Shown here: positions 2,129 to 26,326 of the stretch, piece after piece
How positions within the stretch are numbered: position 1 is the stretch's first letter
How the letters are laid out: every line of letters begins with the position of its first letter
IMG/VR virus record: IMGVR_UViG_3300045988_145346
Source of the DNA: a virus
Length of the DNA: 33,568 nt
Direction: 5' to 3' (one strand)
The notes under the pieces: generated by a model
Told to the model about the DNA's origin: nothing
Seen by the model: only the letters and a program-made list of their open reading frames with translations
The model's database searches: none
Made by a program: the position numbers and the translations under genes

Positions 2129-2548
2129 TCAAACCTCCCCAGTGCTACCAAAACCGCCTGTACGCTTTCCATTTGCGTTGTCATCGTCTGTTGTAAGGTA
2201 TTTGACAAATACCCCTTGCATTATTCTTTGACCTTTAGAAATGGTTACAGGCTCTTTTGAGATATTCATAAATAAGCCTTTAAATTCTTGCGGATAGTAA
2301 TCTGAATCTATAATTCCTACTGAATTAATCAATGCAATGCCACGCTTAACTGGATTACTTGAACGGTCGTATAATTTCAATACTTCATCATCACCAAGTT
2401 GAACAGCTAGCCCAGTGCTTACCATTTTAATTTCATCAGGTTGAATCGTAACTGTTTCACTTGCTGAAATGTCATATCCTGCGCTATGTTCTGTCGCTCG
2501 TTCTGGAATAGTCGCATTTCCGTCTAGTTTTTTAAATCCTCTTTTCAT
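2129..2548 (-). CDS. dut: dUTP diphosphatase (dUTPase).
   Basis: AGYDISASE...GIIDSDYYP...RGGFGSTG motifs. Confidence 0.85.
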   Translation of the reverse strand: MKRGFKKLDGNATIPERATEHSAGYDISASETVTIQPDEIKMVSTGLAVQLGDDEVLKLYDRSSNPVKRGIALINSVGIIDSDYYPQEFKGLFMNISKEPVTISKGQRIMQGVFVKYLTTDDDNANGKRTGGFGSTGEV

Positions 2549-3117: not shown

Positions 3118-3505
3118 TTTTCGTGTCCTCTCTTAATAATTCAGGGTTCTCATAGATATTTCCGATGACTTCATAATTCAATTTATTTGTACTCGCCCAG
3201 TATTTTTGCCGATATAACCTATTTCCTTCAAAAATAATTGAATAACCATATTTTGGATAATATTCAAGATAACCGATTTTGTCATTAGGAGATAAGAATA
3301 TAGCATGCAGTTTTAAAATGTCACCTTCATAAATTTCAACGCCATTTTTATCTTTTATTCCTGTTGACTGCATAAATTCAACGTCTTCATCAGCTTCAGT
3401 ACGTAAATGGTCAAAACGATAATTAATTCTATCTTCGTAATATTCAACCTCTCCATAACTCATACGCTCATCTTGTTTATCCCAAGCTCTTAATTTTGGT
3501 ATCAT
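3110..3505 (-). CDS. YopX-family protein.
   Basis: C-terminal VIGNIYENPELL, typical of YopX. Confidence 0.7.
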   Translation of the reverse strand: MIPKLRAWDKQDERMSYGEVEYYEDRINYRFDHLRTEADEDVEFMQSTGIKDKNGVEIYEGDILKLHAIFLSPNDKIGYLEYYPKYGYSIIFEGNRLYRQKYWASTNKLNYEVIGNIYENPELLREDTKND

Positions 3506-20317: not shown

Positions 20318-22429
20318 CTAAAAGTCATAAGCGGCTTTTTGCCATTGTAGTTGTTGTTGTCGTGCAATTTCACGTTCAGAAGGGTTTTCTTTCACAACAA
20401 CAGTCATTGGAGCGTGTATCTCCGTTTTTGATTGTTCTTGATTTAAAGCATCGACTGGAATGTTTCCAGCTATTTTTTGAGCAGCGATAATATTTGAGTT
20501 GCTGCCAATGTTCAATGCAGAATCCCATGAATCGTTATTTAAGATATTAGTATCAATTTCATCAGTAATTGCTGATTGAATTTGTTTTGCTATCCCAGAA
20601 ACATTTTTTTGAACAGCTTTAAAGTTTTCCATCAAACTGTCATTAAATCCACCCATAATAGCTTCACCAGCTGGAATTAGTAGTTTTCTATCATAACTAA
20701 TTGGTCCTTTATGTTCTTTAATCCAATCAGCAATTCCACCTACAAAACTTTTTACATTTTCGAATCCTGATTTGAGGCCACCTAAGAATCCATTTATAAT
20801 CGCAGAACCCGCTTCAATGAGCGAATCAGGTACGAACACTCCAACTATTGCTCTAAGCAGTTCTCCGGCTGCACTTCTTATATCATCTTGACGACTACTT
20901 ATGTTTTTAGCCAAATCTCTTATTAATTCAATACCAGCATCCATCAATCGACCTGATGCTTGGCCAATTCCACGAACCATTGCGTCAACTAAATTCATTG
21001 CAGCATTCACGATATCCGGAATTCTATTGGCGATCCCTTCTAAGAACTTGGTAATCAAATTAACTGCAGCATTGATGATTTTCCCTAAATTATTGGCAAT
21101 TCCATTAACAAAATTTGCAATCAAGGTAGCAGCTGCACTAATGATATCTGGCATTCGAGCGGCTAACGCATTTGTAAATTTAACCATTAAATTTACCGCA
21201 GTGTTGACGATTTTCGGCATATTTTGGGCAATTACTTGAGCGAAATTCAAAATGATATTTAACGCTTGTTGTGATACTTTACTAATATTATTGGCAATTC
21301 CCTGCATGAAGGTCAGCAGAAGATTCATTCCAGCTTGTAGTATTTTTGGTAAATGAGAATTGAGTGCAGTCAACCAAGTCACAATCAATTCTGCTGTATT
21401 TGCAACTAACGAAGGAATTTGAAGTGTGATCCCTTGAAGTAACGCATTGATCAGAGCTGCACCCGATGCGACTATTTGTAAAGCAGAAGCAGTTAATGCC
21501 CCGATAAATGCCACAATAATTGTCGTGGCAGACGTAGCTATTGTGGGAATAAGTAGCAACATAGCTCCTGTAAATGCTGTAATCAATTGCGCTGCCGCTA
21601 GAGTTAGCTGCGGCAATCCTTGTGCTAGGCCTGCCATAAACCCGGCAATCACTTTCAATCCTCCGGAAACAATTCCTGGCAACGCTGCTGCGATTGCTGT
21701 TAAGATTCCCTCTAGAGCAGTACCAAATGTTGAACCGAGCTTGGGAGCATTTTGCGCCATACTTGAAGCTAGTTCTTCAAATGATTGGGAAATCTGACTC
21801 ATTCCGCCTTTTATCCCTTTGTTTTGAAATGCATTAGCAATCATACCAACTACTTTCAGAACTAGTCCAGCTGGTCCTAGCAATGCACTAAAAGCCACTT
21901 GGAGAATTTTTAAACCAGCTGTTGGTAAATCAACTTTTGATTTTAGGTTTGAAAAAGTATCCCCTAATTTATCGAATCCTTTAAATGAACCCGTAATCTT
22001 TTTTTCAATATCCCGAAATGGCTCTAAAGCTGATCCTAATAAATTGCCGATTCCTTCTTTCACATATGGAATGGCCGCTTTGATAAATGTGACGACCGCT
22101 CCAGGAAGAGCCTTTAAAATATTTCCTACCATTGGAATAAAGTTCTTGAATAAGAATGTTGATGTTGTTGACGCCAACGCTTTCAATGGTCCTTGCAAAT
22201 CACGGCCTAGTGATAAGTTCCCCAGAACATTAGACATTGCAGATTTCATTGAATTAAATGACCCACTAAATGTTGTTGATGCTTCTTTCGCAGTTGTGCC
22301 TGTAATGTCCATTTCTGTTTGGATTGCATGAATCGCTTGCGTGATATCTGAGAAGTTTGAAATATCATACTTTTGACCAGTAAGCTTTTGAGCATCAGTC
22401 AAGAGTCGTTGCATTTCTTCTTTTGTACC
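20318..22429 (-). CDS. Tape measure protein, exon 4 (703 codons plus stop).
   Basis: Begins GGTACAAAAGAAGAAATG ([16 protein letters not shown]...). The 14 codons the ORF track places upstream (22430..22471) are the intron 3 terminus. Confidence 0.8.
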
Positions 22430-23355
22430 CAGTTGTACCCCTTGTTTCCAAGTATTTAAAAGGACTTGCATTTCTGCAAATCCTCAGGGCTTAGACTATA
22501 TCTTTATCAAAATCTTTTTCAAAATACCATTCATAACCTTTGTGTGTTTTTAATTTTTTGTGGCAACATTTAGAAATGCTTGTCACATCGAACCCATCAT
22601 TTTTTGCTAATATCTTTGCCTCGTAAAGTTTTGTTTTTCCTGTTTTTCGTTCATATTGTATGACAGGTTTAGCTGTTTTACTGTTTTCTGCAAACTTTCC
22701 AAAACTTGGATGTTTTTCGCCTCTTGGCATATTATTTCTTAATCCATTAATTTTAGCATGATATAAATTTTCTTTTGATGTTGCCCATTCAAGGTTGTTG
22801 ATATTGTTATTTTGTTTATTGCAATCTATATGGTTAACTTGTGGTTTGTTTTCAGGATTATCTATAAAATGGATAGCTACAAGCCGATGAATAGATAAAA
22901 ATTTTCGCTTGTTATGTTTCCTTAATCCAACTTGTAAATATCCATTATGTTTAAGCGTAGGTTTTATTAGTTGCCCAATTCTTTCATGTACTCCGTCATG
23001 TCTTGTGACACTTCTAACGTTTCCATTGTCGGACACTTGATAATATCCTTCAAAACCTTTAATATCTTTCCAAATTTCCATATTTACCACCGTTCCTTTG
23101 TTACTTATATTTTAACAAAATCTATGGTGGTTTGCAATTATAATTTTGATAGTAGGCGTTTCGAATGTCGTATTAATAGACACCCTACGAGCAAAGCTCT
23201 AGTCGTTGAACCTTCCTCTTTACAGAGGCTTGGCATAGGATTGTCATAGGATTCAGCCCTTAGATGTTCCCTATTAGCACATACTTATTTTTTATTAGTG
23301 TATGCACACCCATTAATAAAATGGTTAACCTACTTTTAATACGGCAATGTAGTTT
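22430..23355 (-). mobile_element. Group I intron 3 in the TMP gene (926 nt) carrying an HNH ORF.
   Basis: The 5' exon TACGGT pairs with the internal guide sequence GCCGTA. The core is homologous to introns 1 and 2 (GGGTGTGCATAC...GACAATCC...AACGACTA...TAGACTATATC). The intron ends on G, 8 nt after a GGGG run. Confidence 0.75.
22491..23081 (-). CDS. Intron-encoded HNH homing endonuclease 3.
   Basis: ...VNHIDCNKQNNNINNLEWATSKEN.... AAAGGAAC ribosome-binding site before the ATG at 23081. Confidence 0.8.
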   Translation of the reverse strand: MEIWKDIKGFEGYYQVSDNGNVRSVTRHDGVHERIGQLIKPTLKHNGYLQVGLRKHNKRKFLSIHRLVAIHFIDNPENKPQVNHIDCNKQNNNINNLEWATSKENLYHAKINGLRNNMPRGEKHPSFGKFAENSKTAKPVIQYERKTGKTKLYEAKILAKNDGFDVTSISKCCHKKLKTHKGYEWYFEKDFDKDIV

Positions 23356-23383
23356 ACCGTACCCCAGTTTCAAGTTATCTAAC
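23356..23383 (-). CDS. TMP mini-exon 3 (28 nt: G TTA GAT AAC TTG AAA CTG GGG TAC GGT, encoding (M)LDNLKLGYG).
   Basis: In-frame continuation between introns 2 and 3. It restores the ...[23 protein letters not shown] motif. Confidence 0.7.
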
Positions 23384-24248
23384 CAAATATACCCCCATTT
23401 TCATGGTATTTAAAAAGACCCACAATGCGTAGGTCTTAGGGTTTAGACTATATCTTCAACTAAATTAAAAACCCAGTTTTTCTTTTTACCTTTAACGTAG
23501 GTTTTTCCATATACAAAATTAGATTTGTTGCATTTGAAATAATTTGCGGTCGAATCTCTTGAATCAAATATGATTTCCTCGTTAGTGACAGTGTTGAAAG
23601 CTCGAACTTTCTTCTTTCTGTTTTCTATTCTGCTATGGTATCCATGACCGTAAGCATTTTCGGAAACGGTGACCCATCTTAAATTGGAAACGTGATTATC
23701 TTGTTTGTTTCCGTTTATATGGTCTATTTGAGGTAGATTATTAGGGTTATCGATAAAATGCTCACCGACTAACCTATGTATATATAGAGGTGTTGTTTTT
23801 CTACCTAACATAACTTGGCAGTATCCGTCTTTTCTAACAGAAACCTTTAACACCCTACCCGTTTTCTTGTTGCGAACTTCACCGTTTTCACTAACCTCAT
23901 AATTTGGTTTATTTTCAATTTCTTTCCACATATTAAAGCCCCCTTTTGATATTTTAATTATAGCATCTTAGGGGTTTAAATACAACTAAACTTACATGTA
24001 CATTTGTTAGTTGGTATGCACTTCCAACAACGTGCTAATAGTTGCCGTACTCGGTGACGAACCGATAGTCGTTGAACCTTCCTCTTTACAGAGGCTTGGC
24101 ACAGGATTGTCATAGCATCAGCCTTAGATTTTCCCTGTCAGCAAAATAATTTCAATAGCCATTTCCTGCTATATTTTTATTTCACACCGCTAGCTAGCGT
24201 TCACATACACTCGTTTGCATAATCACTTATGCAACGGACATTAGATTT
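23384..24248 (-). mobile_element. Group I intron 2 in the TMP gene (865 nt) carrying an HNH ORF.
   Basis: Homologous core and terminus (...GGGGGTATATTTG). The 5' boundary is inferred from reading-frame continuity, and the P1 pairing is weaker. Confidence 0.65.
23443..23931 (-). CDS. Intron-encoded HNH homing endonuclease 2.
   Basis: ...IDHINGNKQDNHVSNLRWVTVSEN.... GGGGG ribosome-binding site. Confidence 0.8.
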   Translation of the reverse strand: MWKEIENKPNYEVSENGEVRNKKTGRVLKVSVRKDGYCQVMLGRKTTPLYIHRLVGEHFIDNPNNLPQIDHINGNKQDNHVSNLRWVTVSENAYGHGYHSRIENRKKKVRAFNTVTNEEIIFDSRDSTANYFKCNKSNFVYGKTYVKGKKKNWVFNLVEDIV

Positions 24249-24325
24249 ATCGTGTAGTTCGATTTAGCAAAACCTTGATAAGCATTTTGAATATCACCAA
24301 CATTTGTACCCATCTTATTTGAGTT
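24249..24325 (-). CDS. TMP mini-exon 2 (77 nt encoding NSNKMGTNVGDIQNAYQGFAKSNYT plus AT).
   Basis: Own translation of the minus strand between the introns. Confidence 0.7.
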
Positions 24326-25239
24326 CCTAGATACCCCCACTTTCGTGGTATTTAAAAAGACCCACATGCAGTAGATCTTTAGGGAGTAGACTATATCATA
24401 TTGGCAAATTCGAAAAGATGACCTTTGTGTATTCCACCGTGATTACAACACCTTGATACTTCTGATTTTGTAAAACCATCTTTGACAGTTTCAACAATGG
24501 CACTGTATCTTTTCGTTTCATTTGTGATAATGTTAGTTGCTATAACTGGTTTTGCTTTTTTACTTTCAGCACCAAATTTACCATAATTGAAATGTTCTTT
24601 ACCGCTTATATGTTTTGTCAACCCATTCTTATAAGCATGTATAACATTATCTTGAACAGTAACCCACTCTAGGTTATCTAAGCTATTATTTAGCTTGTTC
24701 CCGTCTATATGGTTAACTTGTGGCAAGTTATCAGGATTCGGTATGAAATATTCAGCGATTAGTCTGTGGACGTAAAATTGTTTTCTTTTTCTGTTAATCG
24801 AAAAAGTAACCCTGTAATAACCATTAGGCGCAATATCTGGATTTAGCGTTTTGCCTTTCCAAGACCTTGTTCTACCAATTTTATCAGTTACAGTTCTGTC
24901 CTTACTTCTAATCTCTCCATTTGACGATATTTCATAAAATTCTTCGTACCCTTTTATTTTTACCCAGTTCATATTTAATACCCCCATATTTATTCTTTGT
25001 ATGGTTGTATTATATCACAAATTTGTTATTTTTACCAATCGCACCGCTTCGAGTTATGTATCAATAATAACTCTACTTCTAAATAGAATAGTCGTTAAAC
25101 TTTCCACTTTCGTGGCTTAGCACGGGATTGTCTTCGCCTGATAGCGTTAAGAGTTTCCCCGTCAGCACATACTTATTTTTTGTTTGCGTATGCACACCCT
25201 TGATAAGGTTCAATGCGTTTTAATCGGACTGATTAGTTA
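24326..25239 (-). mobile_element. Group I intron 1 in the TMP gene (914 nt) carrying an HNH ORF.
   Basis: The exon end TCGGAT pairs with the internal guide sequence GTCCGA 10 nt into the intron, with a U.G pair at the splice site. The intron ends ...GGGGGTATCTAGG. Confidence 0.75.
24391..24987 (-). CDS. Intron-encoded HNH homing endonuclease 1; the likely start is the ATG at 24972.
   Basis: ...VNHIDGNKLNNSLDNLEWVTVQDN.... Confidence 0.8.
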   Translation of the reverse strand: MGVLNMNWVKIKGYEEFYEISSNGEIRSKDRTVTDKIGRTRSWKGKTLNPDIAPNGYYRVTFSINRKRKQFYVHRLIAEYFIPNPDNLPQVNHIDGNKLNNSLDNLEWVTVQDNVIHAYKNGLTKHISGKEHFNYGKFGAESKKAKPVIATNIITNETKRYSAIVETVKDGFTKSEVSRCCNHGGIHKGHLFEFANMI

Positions 25240-25677
25240 ATCCGACATATCAACAATTGCTTGGTTTGATAAATCTGCGGCCTTAGCTGTATCTCCGTTC
25301 AATGATTTAATCATTGATGCAGAAAAACCTGTTACAGTTTCCATATATGCATTCGCAGACATACCAGCCGTTTTATAACCTTCTGTTGCATATTTTTTTA
25401 CTTTATCTGCATTATCTTTAAATAGAGTTTCGACCCCACCTAATGATTGTTGTAAATCAGCTCCTTCAGAAATTGATGAAGAAATTAATTTACCAAGTGC
25501 TGCTCCTGTTGCTACCACACCAGCTATTGCGGCGACCTTTAAGGCAGAACCAATTTTTAGACCTGCGCTATTTCCTGCCGACTCAGCTTCTGGGTCTAAT
25601 ATCCCAGACATTGAACCTGATATTCCTTTGGCAGATGGCATAATTTGCACATAAGCTTGTCCTAATTCTGTTGCCAT
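25240..25677 (-). CDS. Tape measure protein exon 1 (146 codons, ending ...AIVDMSD).
   Basis: GGAGG ribosome-binding site. A hydrophobic Ala/Gly-rich N-terminus is typical of TMPs. Confidence 0.8.
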
Positions 25678-26075
25678 TAACTTCGTCCTCCTTTTTGAAA
25701 TAGTTGCTGACGATATTTTTCAAAATCCTCACCAGAATGAAATCGGATTTTTCTATCAGTTTTTTCTTTTGGTTTATTGATGATATCGGTAACAAGTTTT
25801 GGCCTGTTCTTACCTTTCTGACCATCTTCTGTTTTAAACCATAAAGACATACTTAAACGGTCTTGAATCCCAGCTAAAAGAAGTGTATTAATTGGAAACT
25901 TTTGTCCACTCATCTTCATTTTTATCCTAGATTCTTCATTCAAACCTATAGAAAAAACAGCTATCTTTAGAGGAGATAGCTGTTTGTAATCGTAAATATG
26001 ATAAATTTCTGCAAGGTCGCACATTAGTGCTTCTTCATCAAACTTTATCATTCTGGCAAGGAGAATTAGTTTTTT
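25677..26075 (-). CDS. Tail assembly chaperone T-part, reached by a -1 frameshift from the G ORF (GT fusion).
   Basis: The frame is open from 26078. The minus-strand slippery heptamer A_AAA_AAC lies at 26069..26075, just before the G-frame stop. Confidence 0.6.
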   Translation of the reverse strand, partial: KKLILLARMIKFDEEALMCDLAEIYHIYDYKQLSPLKIAVFSIGLNEESRIKMKMSGQKFPINTLLLAGIQDRLSMSLWFKTEDGQKGKNRPKLVTDIINKPKEKTDRKIRFHSGEDFEKYRQQLFQKGGRS

Positions 26076-26326
26076 ATTTTATTTTGAGCTGCAAAAATAT
26101 CTTCAAGCGCTTCTCTGATTTTGTCAGTCGAAACAAGACCTTCTTCATCTCGAAGATAGTTTTTTAAATTTTTAGATTGATGTTCTCCCAATAAGAGATT
26201 TAACATTTTTGGTAACAGAAGAGGATTTTCATCAACTTCTGACAAAATTTCTACCAACTCGAAATTATTTAAACGTTCAGTTGTAATTTCATAACGAAAT
26301 CCGGATTTTGTTGTTCCTTTTAACAT
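26066..26326 (-). CDS. Tail assembly chaperone (gpG-like).
   Basis: 86-aa acidic protein between the major tail protein and the TMP. Confidence 0.65.
   Translation of the reverse strand: MLKGTTKSGFRYEITTERLNNFELVEILSEVDENPLLLPKMLNLLLGEHQSKNLKNYLRDEEGLVSTDKIREALEDIFAAQNKIKN

Follow-up and report, generated by a model that had tools for sequence, protein, structure and literature searches.

The tape measure gene of a P335/r1t-like Lactococcus phage is, with high confidence, split within 105 nt by three paralogous IA2-like group I introns, which would be removed by splicing, be mobile by means of HNH endonucleases and have been acquired independently. The gene lies on the minus strand of IMG/VR virus record IMGVR_UViG_3300045988_145346; the whole 33,568-nt stretch of this record is called the window here, and all coordinates refer to it unless another record is named. 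We based this reading on the exon structure, on a ribozyme fold displayed by covariation and on the homology of the endonucleases, all of which were observed in this work.

Exon structure of the tape measure gene

In the list of open reading frames (ORFs), the gene appears as a 146-aa ORF (25677..25237) and a 717-aa ORF (22471..20318), with three ORFs of 198, 162 and 199 aa between them on the same strand. Homologs of the gene are annotated as tape measure protein. To set the exon boundaries, we took the tape measure gene of Lactococcus phage 50101 (KX456207), which is uninterrupted, as the blastn query against this region. We observed four colinear blocks, in which nt 1-438 of the 50101 gene aligned to 25677..25240, nt 445-515 to 24319..24249, nt 520-543 to 23379..23356 and nt 544-875 to 22429..22098; the 3' end of the gene matched too. 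The two short blocks were extended to contiguity, which gave exon lengths of 77 and 28 nt.

The gene has four exons on the minus strand. Exon 1 (25240..25677; 438 nt, 146 codons) is 99.3% identical to nt 1-438 of the 50101 gene, and is called as a separate 146-aa ORF because intron 1 opens with an in-frame TAA. Exon 2 (24249..24325) is a mini-exon of 77 nt that corresponds to nt 439-515 of the 50101 gene; it encodes (D)NSNKMGTNVGDIQNAYQGFAKSNYT(M) and is flanked by the terminal G of intron 1 and by the 5' splice site ...ACGAT^ of intron 2 (the caret marks a splice site throughout). Exon 3 (23356..23383), a mini-exon of 28 nt, corresponds to nt 516-543 and encodes (M)LDNLKLGYG. Exon 4 (20318..22429; 2112 nt including the stop codon) was placed by blastn and by joining. 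When joined (25677..25240 + 24325..24249 + 23383..23356 + 22429..20318), the exons make 2655 nt in a single frame, encoding 884 aa. None of the junctions can be shifted, since the 5' and 3' splice sites have different bases on their two sides. The predicted ligated junctions are GTCGGAT^AACTCAA, CACGAT^GTTAGAT and TACGGT^GGTACAA, so that the spliced sequence is expected to read ...ATGTCGGAT^AACTCAAAT... over exons 1 and 2 and ...TACGGT^GGTACAAAA over exons 3 and 4. The peptides predicted to span the junctions of the spliced protein are AADLSNQAIVDMSDNSNK, SNYTMLDNLK and LGYGGTK.

The exon pieces were 90-99% identical to the homolog at the DNA level. The spliced N-terminus matched phrog_6900 (residues 1-216, E 4e-93), phrog_3981, phrog_58 and phrog_991, each as one unbroken stretch over all three junctions; searches of Pfam and NCBIfam with the same spliced N-terminus gave no match. 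By these sequence comparisons, the match of the exon pieces to the homolog, along with the continuous match to tape measure profiles, is far beyond chance. The 884-aa product was also covered over 94% of its length, at 80% identity, by uninterrupted Enterococcus phage tail proteins (891 aa), and within the protein family conservation is highest in the 35 residues from exons 2 and 3.

The first 14 codons of the 717-aa ORF (22430..22471, minus strand) form a false N-terminus. They correspond to the P9.1/P9.2 region and the 3' tail of intron 3, and homology to the intron-less genes resumes at 22429, immediately downstream of them. Their reading frame is not conserved, since the same ATG is directly followed by TAA in two orthologs (survey loci L053 and L113a).

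An initial annotation, made from the window sequence without database searches, had proposed both mini-exons at these positions, and the 50101 blocks and the in-frame joining bear this out. It had also assigned the 14 codons to the in-frame end of intron 3, which agrees with the point where homology resumes. Its suggestion that the product be aligned with uninterrupted relatives was borne out as well, the 50101 protein reading exactly the spliced sequence that it predicted; the spliced protein of the window differs from that of 50101 at two residues across the exon-junction stretch (NSNK, AKSNYT). Its statement that ORF-based annotation misses the exons holds for the public gene calls. Published relatives (phage 38502, Str-PAP-1, Javan271, r1t, proPhi7 and C41431) are annotated as split genes, and ORF finders do not see their mini-exons, which are 22-77 nt long.

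Splice sites and conserved motifs of the introns

We observed that all three 5' exons end in T (U in the RNA), and that all three introns end in G, at positions set independently by the intron-less homologs. The introns are all on the minus strand and of the IA2-like group I type: intron 1 (914 nt, 24326..25239, with boundaries from blastn) has its last base, G, at 24326, intron 2 (865 nt, 23384..24248) at 23384 and intron 3 (926 nt, 22430..23355) at 22430. The classic R (AACGACTA) and S (AAGATATAGTC) elements were present in all three inserts.

In intron 1, the guide GTCCGA lies at 25229..25224, P3 at 25217..25211 and 25046..25040, the R element with the 5' strand of P7 at 25096..25089, P8 at 25039..25032 and 24407..24400, the S element with the 3' strand of P7 at 24397..24389, and the terminal GNRA hairpin at 24348..24337. 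Intron 2 has the guide GTCCGT (24239..24234), a P2 hairpin (24233..24216), P3 (24208..24202 and 24020..24014), the R element (24073..24066), P8 (24013..24006 and 23464..23457), the S element (23454..23446) and the terminal hairpin (23406..23395). Intron 3 has the guide GCCGTA (23345..23340), P3 (23333..23327 and 23158..23152), the R element (23207..23200), P8 (23151..23144 and 22512..22505), the S element (22502..22494) and the terminal hairpin (22452..22441).

The P1 helices of introns 1 and 3 consist of 6 bp, with a U-G wobble at the splice site (UCGGAU/GUCCGA and UACGGU/GCCGUA). Both pairings had been put forward in the initial annotation, as had the terminal U of all 5' exons, and they proved exact. 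Its further remark, that the introns end on G exactly 8 nt after a run of four or five G, is true of all three introns but does not amount to a rule for the family, as the tails of relatives are 8-11 nt long. The G run is made up of the last GNRA hairpin's 3' strand and the GGG that closes P9.

P1 also covaries with the exon, being UCGGAU/GUCCGA in the window and GCGGAU/GUCCGC in a relative with an intron at the same site (L118). The cognate exon hexamer was found in all intron-plus alleles, and in 3/26, 6/26 and 3/26 distinct intron-less alleles at the sites of introns 1, 2 and 3 (sites 1, 2 and 3). The hexamer differences between intron-plus and intron-less alleles were synonymous third-position changes (TCT>TCG, ACC>ACG, TAT>TAC). 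This bias would fit a requirement of P1, co-conversion of flanking exon during homing, or both.

Besides its distal complement (23463..23457), the 5' strand of P8 in intron 2, CAACTAA (24013..24007), has an alternative local one, TTAGTTG, 15 nt downstream (23989..23983). A similar local complement is seen in phages 38502 and Str-PAP-1, and it may represent a fold, competing or transient, that precedes the endonuclease gene.

Covariation of the ribozyme fold

We examined covariation in 36 introns (34 distinct sequences), over 12 helices with 62 bp. The helices were cut by fixed offsets from invariant motifs, with no optimising for pairing, because the MAFFT alignment has the P1/P2 region and the 5' strand of P3 out of register between sites. 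An automatic best-complement search for P8 was dropped, as several strands were mis-picked.

Canonical pairs filled 98.6% of the helix cells, against 73.5 +/- 0.6% in column shuffles (maximum 75.7%), and sliding the 3' partner by 1-3 positions in the 5' direction left pairing at only 31-37%. Compensatory double changes were present at 40 of the 62 bp. P3 occurred in 15 versions (for example CGCAUUG/CGGUGCG, GUACGUG/UGCGUAC and GUAGGU/GCCUAC), P7.2 in 22 and P8 in 21, the last two varying at every pair. Covariation is uninformative on P7 and on the CCC/GGG stem that closes P9, since both are invariant. All 12 helices were intact in each of the three introns of the window.

The predicted layout runs from P1 through P2 (in site 2 introns only), P3, two extra hairpins, P4, P5 and P6/P6a to P7, and continues with P7.1, P7.2, P3', P8 (with the endonuclease gene in its loop), P7', P9, 8 nt and the terminal G; P9 encloses a long hairpin and a GNRA hairpin. 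The presence of P7.1 and P7.2 between P7 and P3' is a mark of subgroup IA2. We observed these two hairpins in 36/36 introns, with compensatory changes at 4/4 and 7/7 bp, respectively.

Endonuclease genes in the P8 loops

The loop of P8 holds an intact ORF in each of the three introns, and all three ORFs matched NUMOD4 and HNH_3 above the Pfam cut-offs. Homing endonuclease gene 1 (24391..24972, minus strand) encodes 193 aa from its second ATG, the start in the ORF list being at 24987 (NUMOD4 5e-17, HNH_3 4.5e-12). Its product matched I-HmuI (PDB 1U3E) over the full length (E 1.7e-15), with ORF residues 6-194, numbered from the first ATG, aligned to residues 1-170 of the chain. Gene 2 (23443..23931, minus strand; 162 aa; NUMOD4 3.5e-12, HNH_3 1.1e-9) also matched HNH endonuclease families in PHROGs. 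Gene 3 (22491..23081, minus strand) encodes 196 aa (NUMOD4 1.9e-17, HNH_3 1.3e-8).

The 3' ends of the genes (..DIV*, ..NMI*) double as the 3' strand of P8, J8/7 and the 3' strand of P7 over the last 6-9 codons. The last codons of gene 1 overlap the 3' strand of P8 and the S element, and the C-terminal ...LVEDIV* of endonuclease 2 and ...DFDKDIV* of endonuclease 3 overlap the 3' strand of P8, J8/7 and the 3' strand of P7.

Within each P8 loop, the ORF is preceded by an extended -10-like sequence (TGATATAAT, TGCTATAAT and TGTTAAAAT) and a purine-rich ribosome-binding site. The promoter-like sites are TTGGTA-18-TATAAT with TG before gene 1 (25038..25009), the extended -10 TGCTATAAT before gene 2 (23965..23957) and TTGCAA-17-TAAAAT with TG before gene 3 (23137..23109). 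Similar motifs occur in relatives, and these sites are candidate promoters of the endonuclease genes. Among the site 2 introns of other phages (L005, L112, L140, L144, L150, L162 and L163), several have a 40-60 nt insertion in P6a with a near-consensus promoter, such as TTGACT-17-TATAAT in Javan271. This suggests that the endonuclease promoter of that sub-lineage may be placed in a different loop.

Points that weigh against the intron reading

Some observations weigh against three active introns of known type. P1 of intron 2, which had already been called poor in the initial annotation, is indeed weak: CACGAT/GTCCGT gives 3 contiguous pairs, or 5 with a one-base bulge. This pairing, ACGAU with GUC[C/U]G, is kept in 21 orthologs and its sole variable base is the bulged one; judged by these orthologs, the weak P1 is a trait of the family, not a defect of the copy in the window. 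The P10 pairings, judged by eye, were weak or absent.

The fold also departs from the expected one. In the standard IA2 layout, as in td and the Twort introns, the 5' strand of P3 is joined directly to P4 through J3/4. Here, two hairpins lie between them (approximately 25205..25160, 24196..24140 and 23321..23277 in the three introns), outside that layout. They were found in all 36 family members and show compensatory changes, with 11 and 20 versions. We call the introns IA2-like, and not IA2, because these hairpins separate the 5' strand of P3 from P4. No relevant report, and no name for them, came out of a literature search on P3.1/P3.2 hairpins of group I introns, and the two hairpins could define an undescribed structural variant of IA2 ribozymes.

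Rfam found no group I intron in the window, either at the gathering score or at E<=10. In E-value mode, the matches in region 22300..25400 were all noise (snoRNA, tmRNA and a plastid group II fragment), far below the thresholds. This is presumably due to the endonuclease gene of about 490-630 nt inside P8. ORF-less orthologs did give Rfam matches, and that of intron 3 scored 60.3 bits on RF00028 (gathering score 50; E 6.5e-15). This ortholog (L053, the same as L109) comes from a metagenomic phage contig and is a 355-nt intron at the exact site of intron 3 (TACGGT^AAACTACATTGCCGTA...ACAACTG^GGAAC). Its core is 94% identical to that of intron 3, and of its endonuclease gene only the last ~25 codons are left.

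A contiguous spliced protein at ~100% identity, such as a metatranscriptome or an intron-less twin might supply, was not found in a collection of 5.8 billion proteins. The sole close protein in it was the mis-called 717-aa ORF, with 68 member sequences. Lastly, the promoter-like sites were not enriched over shuffles overall (19 vs 13 +/- 3.7).

Orthologous introns and their probable independent acquisition

Megablast against the phage collection matched exon sequence only, and the introns needed a more distant search. Our first survey, in which only the best 80 viral loci were kept, gave 89 homologous loci, and among these no intron was seen at site 1 or 3 except in L053. A motif scan of IMG/VR then gave 55 loci of the same intron family, most of which occupied sites 1-3 of homologous tape measure genes, including six introns at site 1 and seven at site 3.

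Site 1 (..TCGGAT^...G^AACGC) is occupied in L116, L118 (ORF-less, 293 nt), L121, L125, L137 and L141. Site 2 (..ACGAT^...G^GTTAGA) is occupied in about 20 loci and in phages 38502, Str-PAP-1 and Javan271, and site 3 (..TACGGT^...G^GG(T/A)AC) in L109, L110, L113a, L115, L120, L126 and L159. The carriers have tape measure proteins 60-99% identical to that of the window. ORF-less copies of 293-355 nt (L053, L113a, L115, L118 and L129) occupy the same sites.

The three cores of the window were 68-72% identical to each other, as against 78-97% to same-site orthologs in other phages, and the three endonucleases were mutually 37-44% identical. As the cores are closer to their same-site orthologs than to one another, they point to three invasions by site-specialised lineages and not to local duplication.

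Further introns fall in the same stretch. Phages r1t, proPhi7 and C41431 have a different intron lineage after nt 537, 6 nt upstream of site 3, and Str-PAP-1 has another intron after nt 456, which brings the insertion sites within 105 nt to five (after nt 438, 456, 515, 537 and 543). The region encoding residues 146-182 is a dense homing hot spot, used by at least three intron lineages in Lactococcus and Streptococcus phages with up to three introns per gene. The hot spot lends itself, as a natural system, to work on the coexistence of nearby homing endonucleases and tandem ribozymes, possible exon skipping included.

In L110 (IMGVR_UViG_3300010283_000022, about 3180-3195), the site 3 intron reads ...GGGGGTATCAATTA^GGTACAAAAAG at its 3' end. 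The tape measure frame is kept there only if the intron ends in A, and not in the universal G; the copy may be defective in splicing, or the letter may be a sequencing error.

Short ORF-less family members were also seen outside tape measure genes (L114, L122-L124, L133, L139, L146-L148, L151 and others). They share the S element, the CCC...GGG stem and the GNRA hairpin, and some are on contigs labelled GVMAG (giant-virus bins).

Proposed mechanism and alternative explanations

Splicing, the activity and specificity of the endonucleases, the use of their promoters and homing are predictions from sequence, and the following steps are proposed. Each intron RNA would fold into a ribozyme whose guide pairs with the final 5-6 bases of the exon upstream (P1, with the U-G wobble at the splice site). 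Guanosine-initiated transesterification, followed by attack at the terminal G, would remove the intron, and the 438-, 77-, 28- and 2112-nt exons would be ligated into one mRNA for the 884-aa tape measure protein. From its P8 loop, each intron would express an I-HmuI-type NUMOD4/HNH nicking homing endonuclease, using promoter-like and ribosome-binding sequences of its own. The endonucleases would cut intron-less alleles near the insertion site, in mixed infections or in phage-prophage encounters, and repair of the cut allele would copy in the intron along with flanking exon bases. The three introns would have been acquired independently, from lineages each specialised for one site.

Alternative splicing, in which some transcripts skip exons, would complement this explanation rather than replace it, and we consider it unlikely. 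The mini-exons add up to 105 nt (77 + 28), a multiple of three; skipping both would give an in-frame protein shorter by 35 aa, and skipping one would give a frameshift and truncation. The similar cores share one architecture and flank very short exons, and exon skipping is documented for the 23-nt exon of Twort orf142 and the 34-nt exon of Coxiella 23S rRNA (as summarised in PMC10136302) and reported for a Bacillus phage polymerase gene (PMC11878797). However, the guide sequences of the window are distinct, and distinct guides suppress skipping in engineered tandem introns (PMC10136302); an isoform without the 35 most conserved residues may also not function. We give similarly little weight to a bolder proposal, in which the tandem introns and mini-exons form an alternative-splicing module and, separately, the introns are an IA2 variant with P3-P4 hairpins specialised on the 105-nt, five-site hot spot. 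If such a module were real, isoforms from exon 1-exon 4 ligation, along with frameshifted products, would tune tail assembly or late-gene dosage.

It is considerably less probable that the introns have decayed and no longer splice, leaving a tape measure pseudogene in a defective prophage. The weak P1 of intron 2 would agree with this, and the terminal A of L110 suggests that decay occurs in the family. However, the 12/12 intact helices in all three introns argue against it, as do the four open, in-frame exons with conserved residues and the three intact endonuclease ORFs. The same arrangement also recurs in many independent metagenome assemblies, with tape measure length variants downstream, which fits a replicating phage lineage.

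Free-standing HNH genes, inserted with no ribozyme (or, as a variant, of intein origin) and leaving separate polypeptides, would match the public annotations of split 'tape measure protein' coding sequences and 'HNH endonuclease', but are hardly credible given the structured RNA of about 290-320 nt, conserved with strong covariation, around each gene, the ORF-less versions of 293-355 nt at the same sites with an Rfam match on one such ortholog, and mini-exons with neither a start codon nor a ribosome-binding site of their own. An intein was rejected, since every insert brings in an in-frame stop, at the exon end or no more than 8 codons from it (TAA opens intron 1), and a Hint domain is absent. 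A group II intron was rejected too.

Comparison with known systems

A group I intron was reportedly found in lactococcal phage r1t, at ORF40/ORF41/ORF42, by van Sinderen and co-workers in 1996. We observed that r1t (record U38906) shares with the window the same gene and the same conserved N-terminal region, a near-identical protein, an HNH ORF and a split annotation. However, r1t has one intron, after nt 537 (..CTGGGT^), of a different lineage with different 5' and 3' ends, whereas the window has none after nt 537 and three after nt 438, 515 and 543.

Orf142 of phage Twort has three introns, with a 23-nt exon between similar IA2 introns and exon skipping (Landthaler & Shub 1999, as summarised in PMC10136302 and PMC11878797). 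In those accounts, it resembles the window in having three group I introns in one tail structural gene and a very short exon between similar IA2 introns. It differs in being a tail tube gene of a phage with another host and in that its skipping was shown experimentally, the splicing in the window being predicted from sequence. All three introns of the window keep intact endonuclease genes, a further difference from orf142 as described there.

The tape measure genes of Bacillus cereus-group prophages contain the group I introns TMP-IVS1/2/3 (Tourasse & Kolsto 2008, PMC2504315). There, too, the tape measure gene is a recurrent target, with three insertion sites and related IA2 introns retargeted through P1 and the guide; some copies are ORF-less, and the introns spread on prophages. 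Unlike the window, they involve another tape measure family and other sites, with at most two introns per gene as described (PMC2504315), whereas in the window a single gene has introns at all three sites, which fall within 105 nt.

The SPO1/SP82 DNA polymerase intron (I-HmuI/I-HmuII, PDB 1U3E) has the same endonuclease family, matched over the full length, inside a phage group I intron. It lies in another host gene, and the nicking and cleavage position of I-HmuI are known, whereas such activity of the endonucleases of the window is predicted from homology. In the gene for lysin in Streptococcus thermophilus phages, an intron occurs both in a version that includes an endonuclease ORF and in derivatives from which this ORF has been deleted (Foley et al. 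2000, cited in PMC3952083). It is likewise a dairy-phage group I intron found with and without its ORF at the same site, but in a lysin gene and at a single site.

A tape measure gene with three introns is not conceptually new, given the precedents in r1t, Bacillus cereus prophages and Twort. What is distinctive in the window is the packing of three endonuclease-bearing introns into 105 nt, in a hot spot that is widely used.

Distribution, gene calls and genomic setting

Contigs in no fewer than 43 blocks of metagenome assemblies encode the exact endonuclease 1 and 3 proteins. Every such contig shown had the 146-aa, three HNH and 717-aa calls, or variants with a 648-aa last ORF or a split into 393 + 329 aa. 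Two pairs of loci, L098/L104 (ENA ERZ28648424) and L100/L106 (ERZ28645089), have an identical three-intron region and differ in exon 4 (a 648-aa ORF, or the 393 + 329 aa split); the repeat region of the tape measure gene is thus variable, or frameshifted, between contigs that share these introns. Dozens of public assemblies have gene calls of 146 aa, three HNH genes and 717 aa for this tape measure gene. The correct 884-aa product matters, since tape measure length predicts tail length and serves in the classification of dairy phages.

Unannotated short exons were also seen in relatives. Javan271 (L005, MK448723) has a 22-nt exon at 3471..3492, between the site 2 endonuclease intron and an ORF-less r1t-type intron, and Str-PAP-1 (L004, KP208803) has a 59-nt exon at 2486..2544, between two endonuclease introns. 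In L113 (IMGVR_UViG_3300045593_000136), the same 28-nt exon as in the window is flanked by a site 2 intron and by a site 3 intron that is ORF-less.

The minus strand from 19.4 to 27 kb of the window is the tail module of a P335/r1t-like Lactococcus phage, with the major tail protein, two chaperone ORFs, tape measure, Dit and Tal, and the nearest relatives of this phage are the lactococcal temperate phages of the r1t/phiLC3/50101 set. Upstream of the tape measure gene are a DUF5361 ORF and an A_AAA_AAC -1 frameshift site, which fits a position after the tail assembly chaperone pair. The heptamer lies at 26069..26075 (minus strand), just before the TAA of an 86-aa ORF (26066..26326), and a -1 shift at it reads directly into the ATG-initiated 124-aa DUF5361 ORF (25677..26051). 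Placed directly upstream of the tape measure gene, it resembles the canonical frameshift of tail assembly chaperones.

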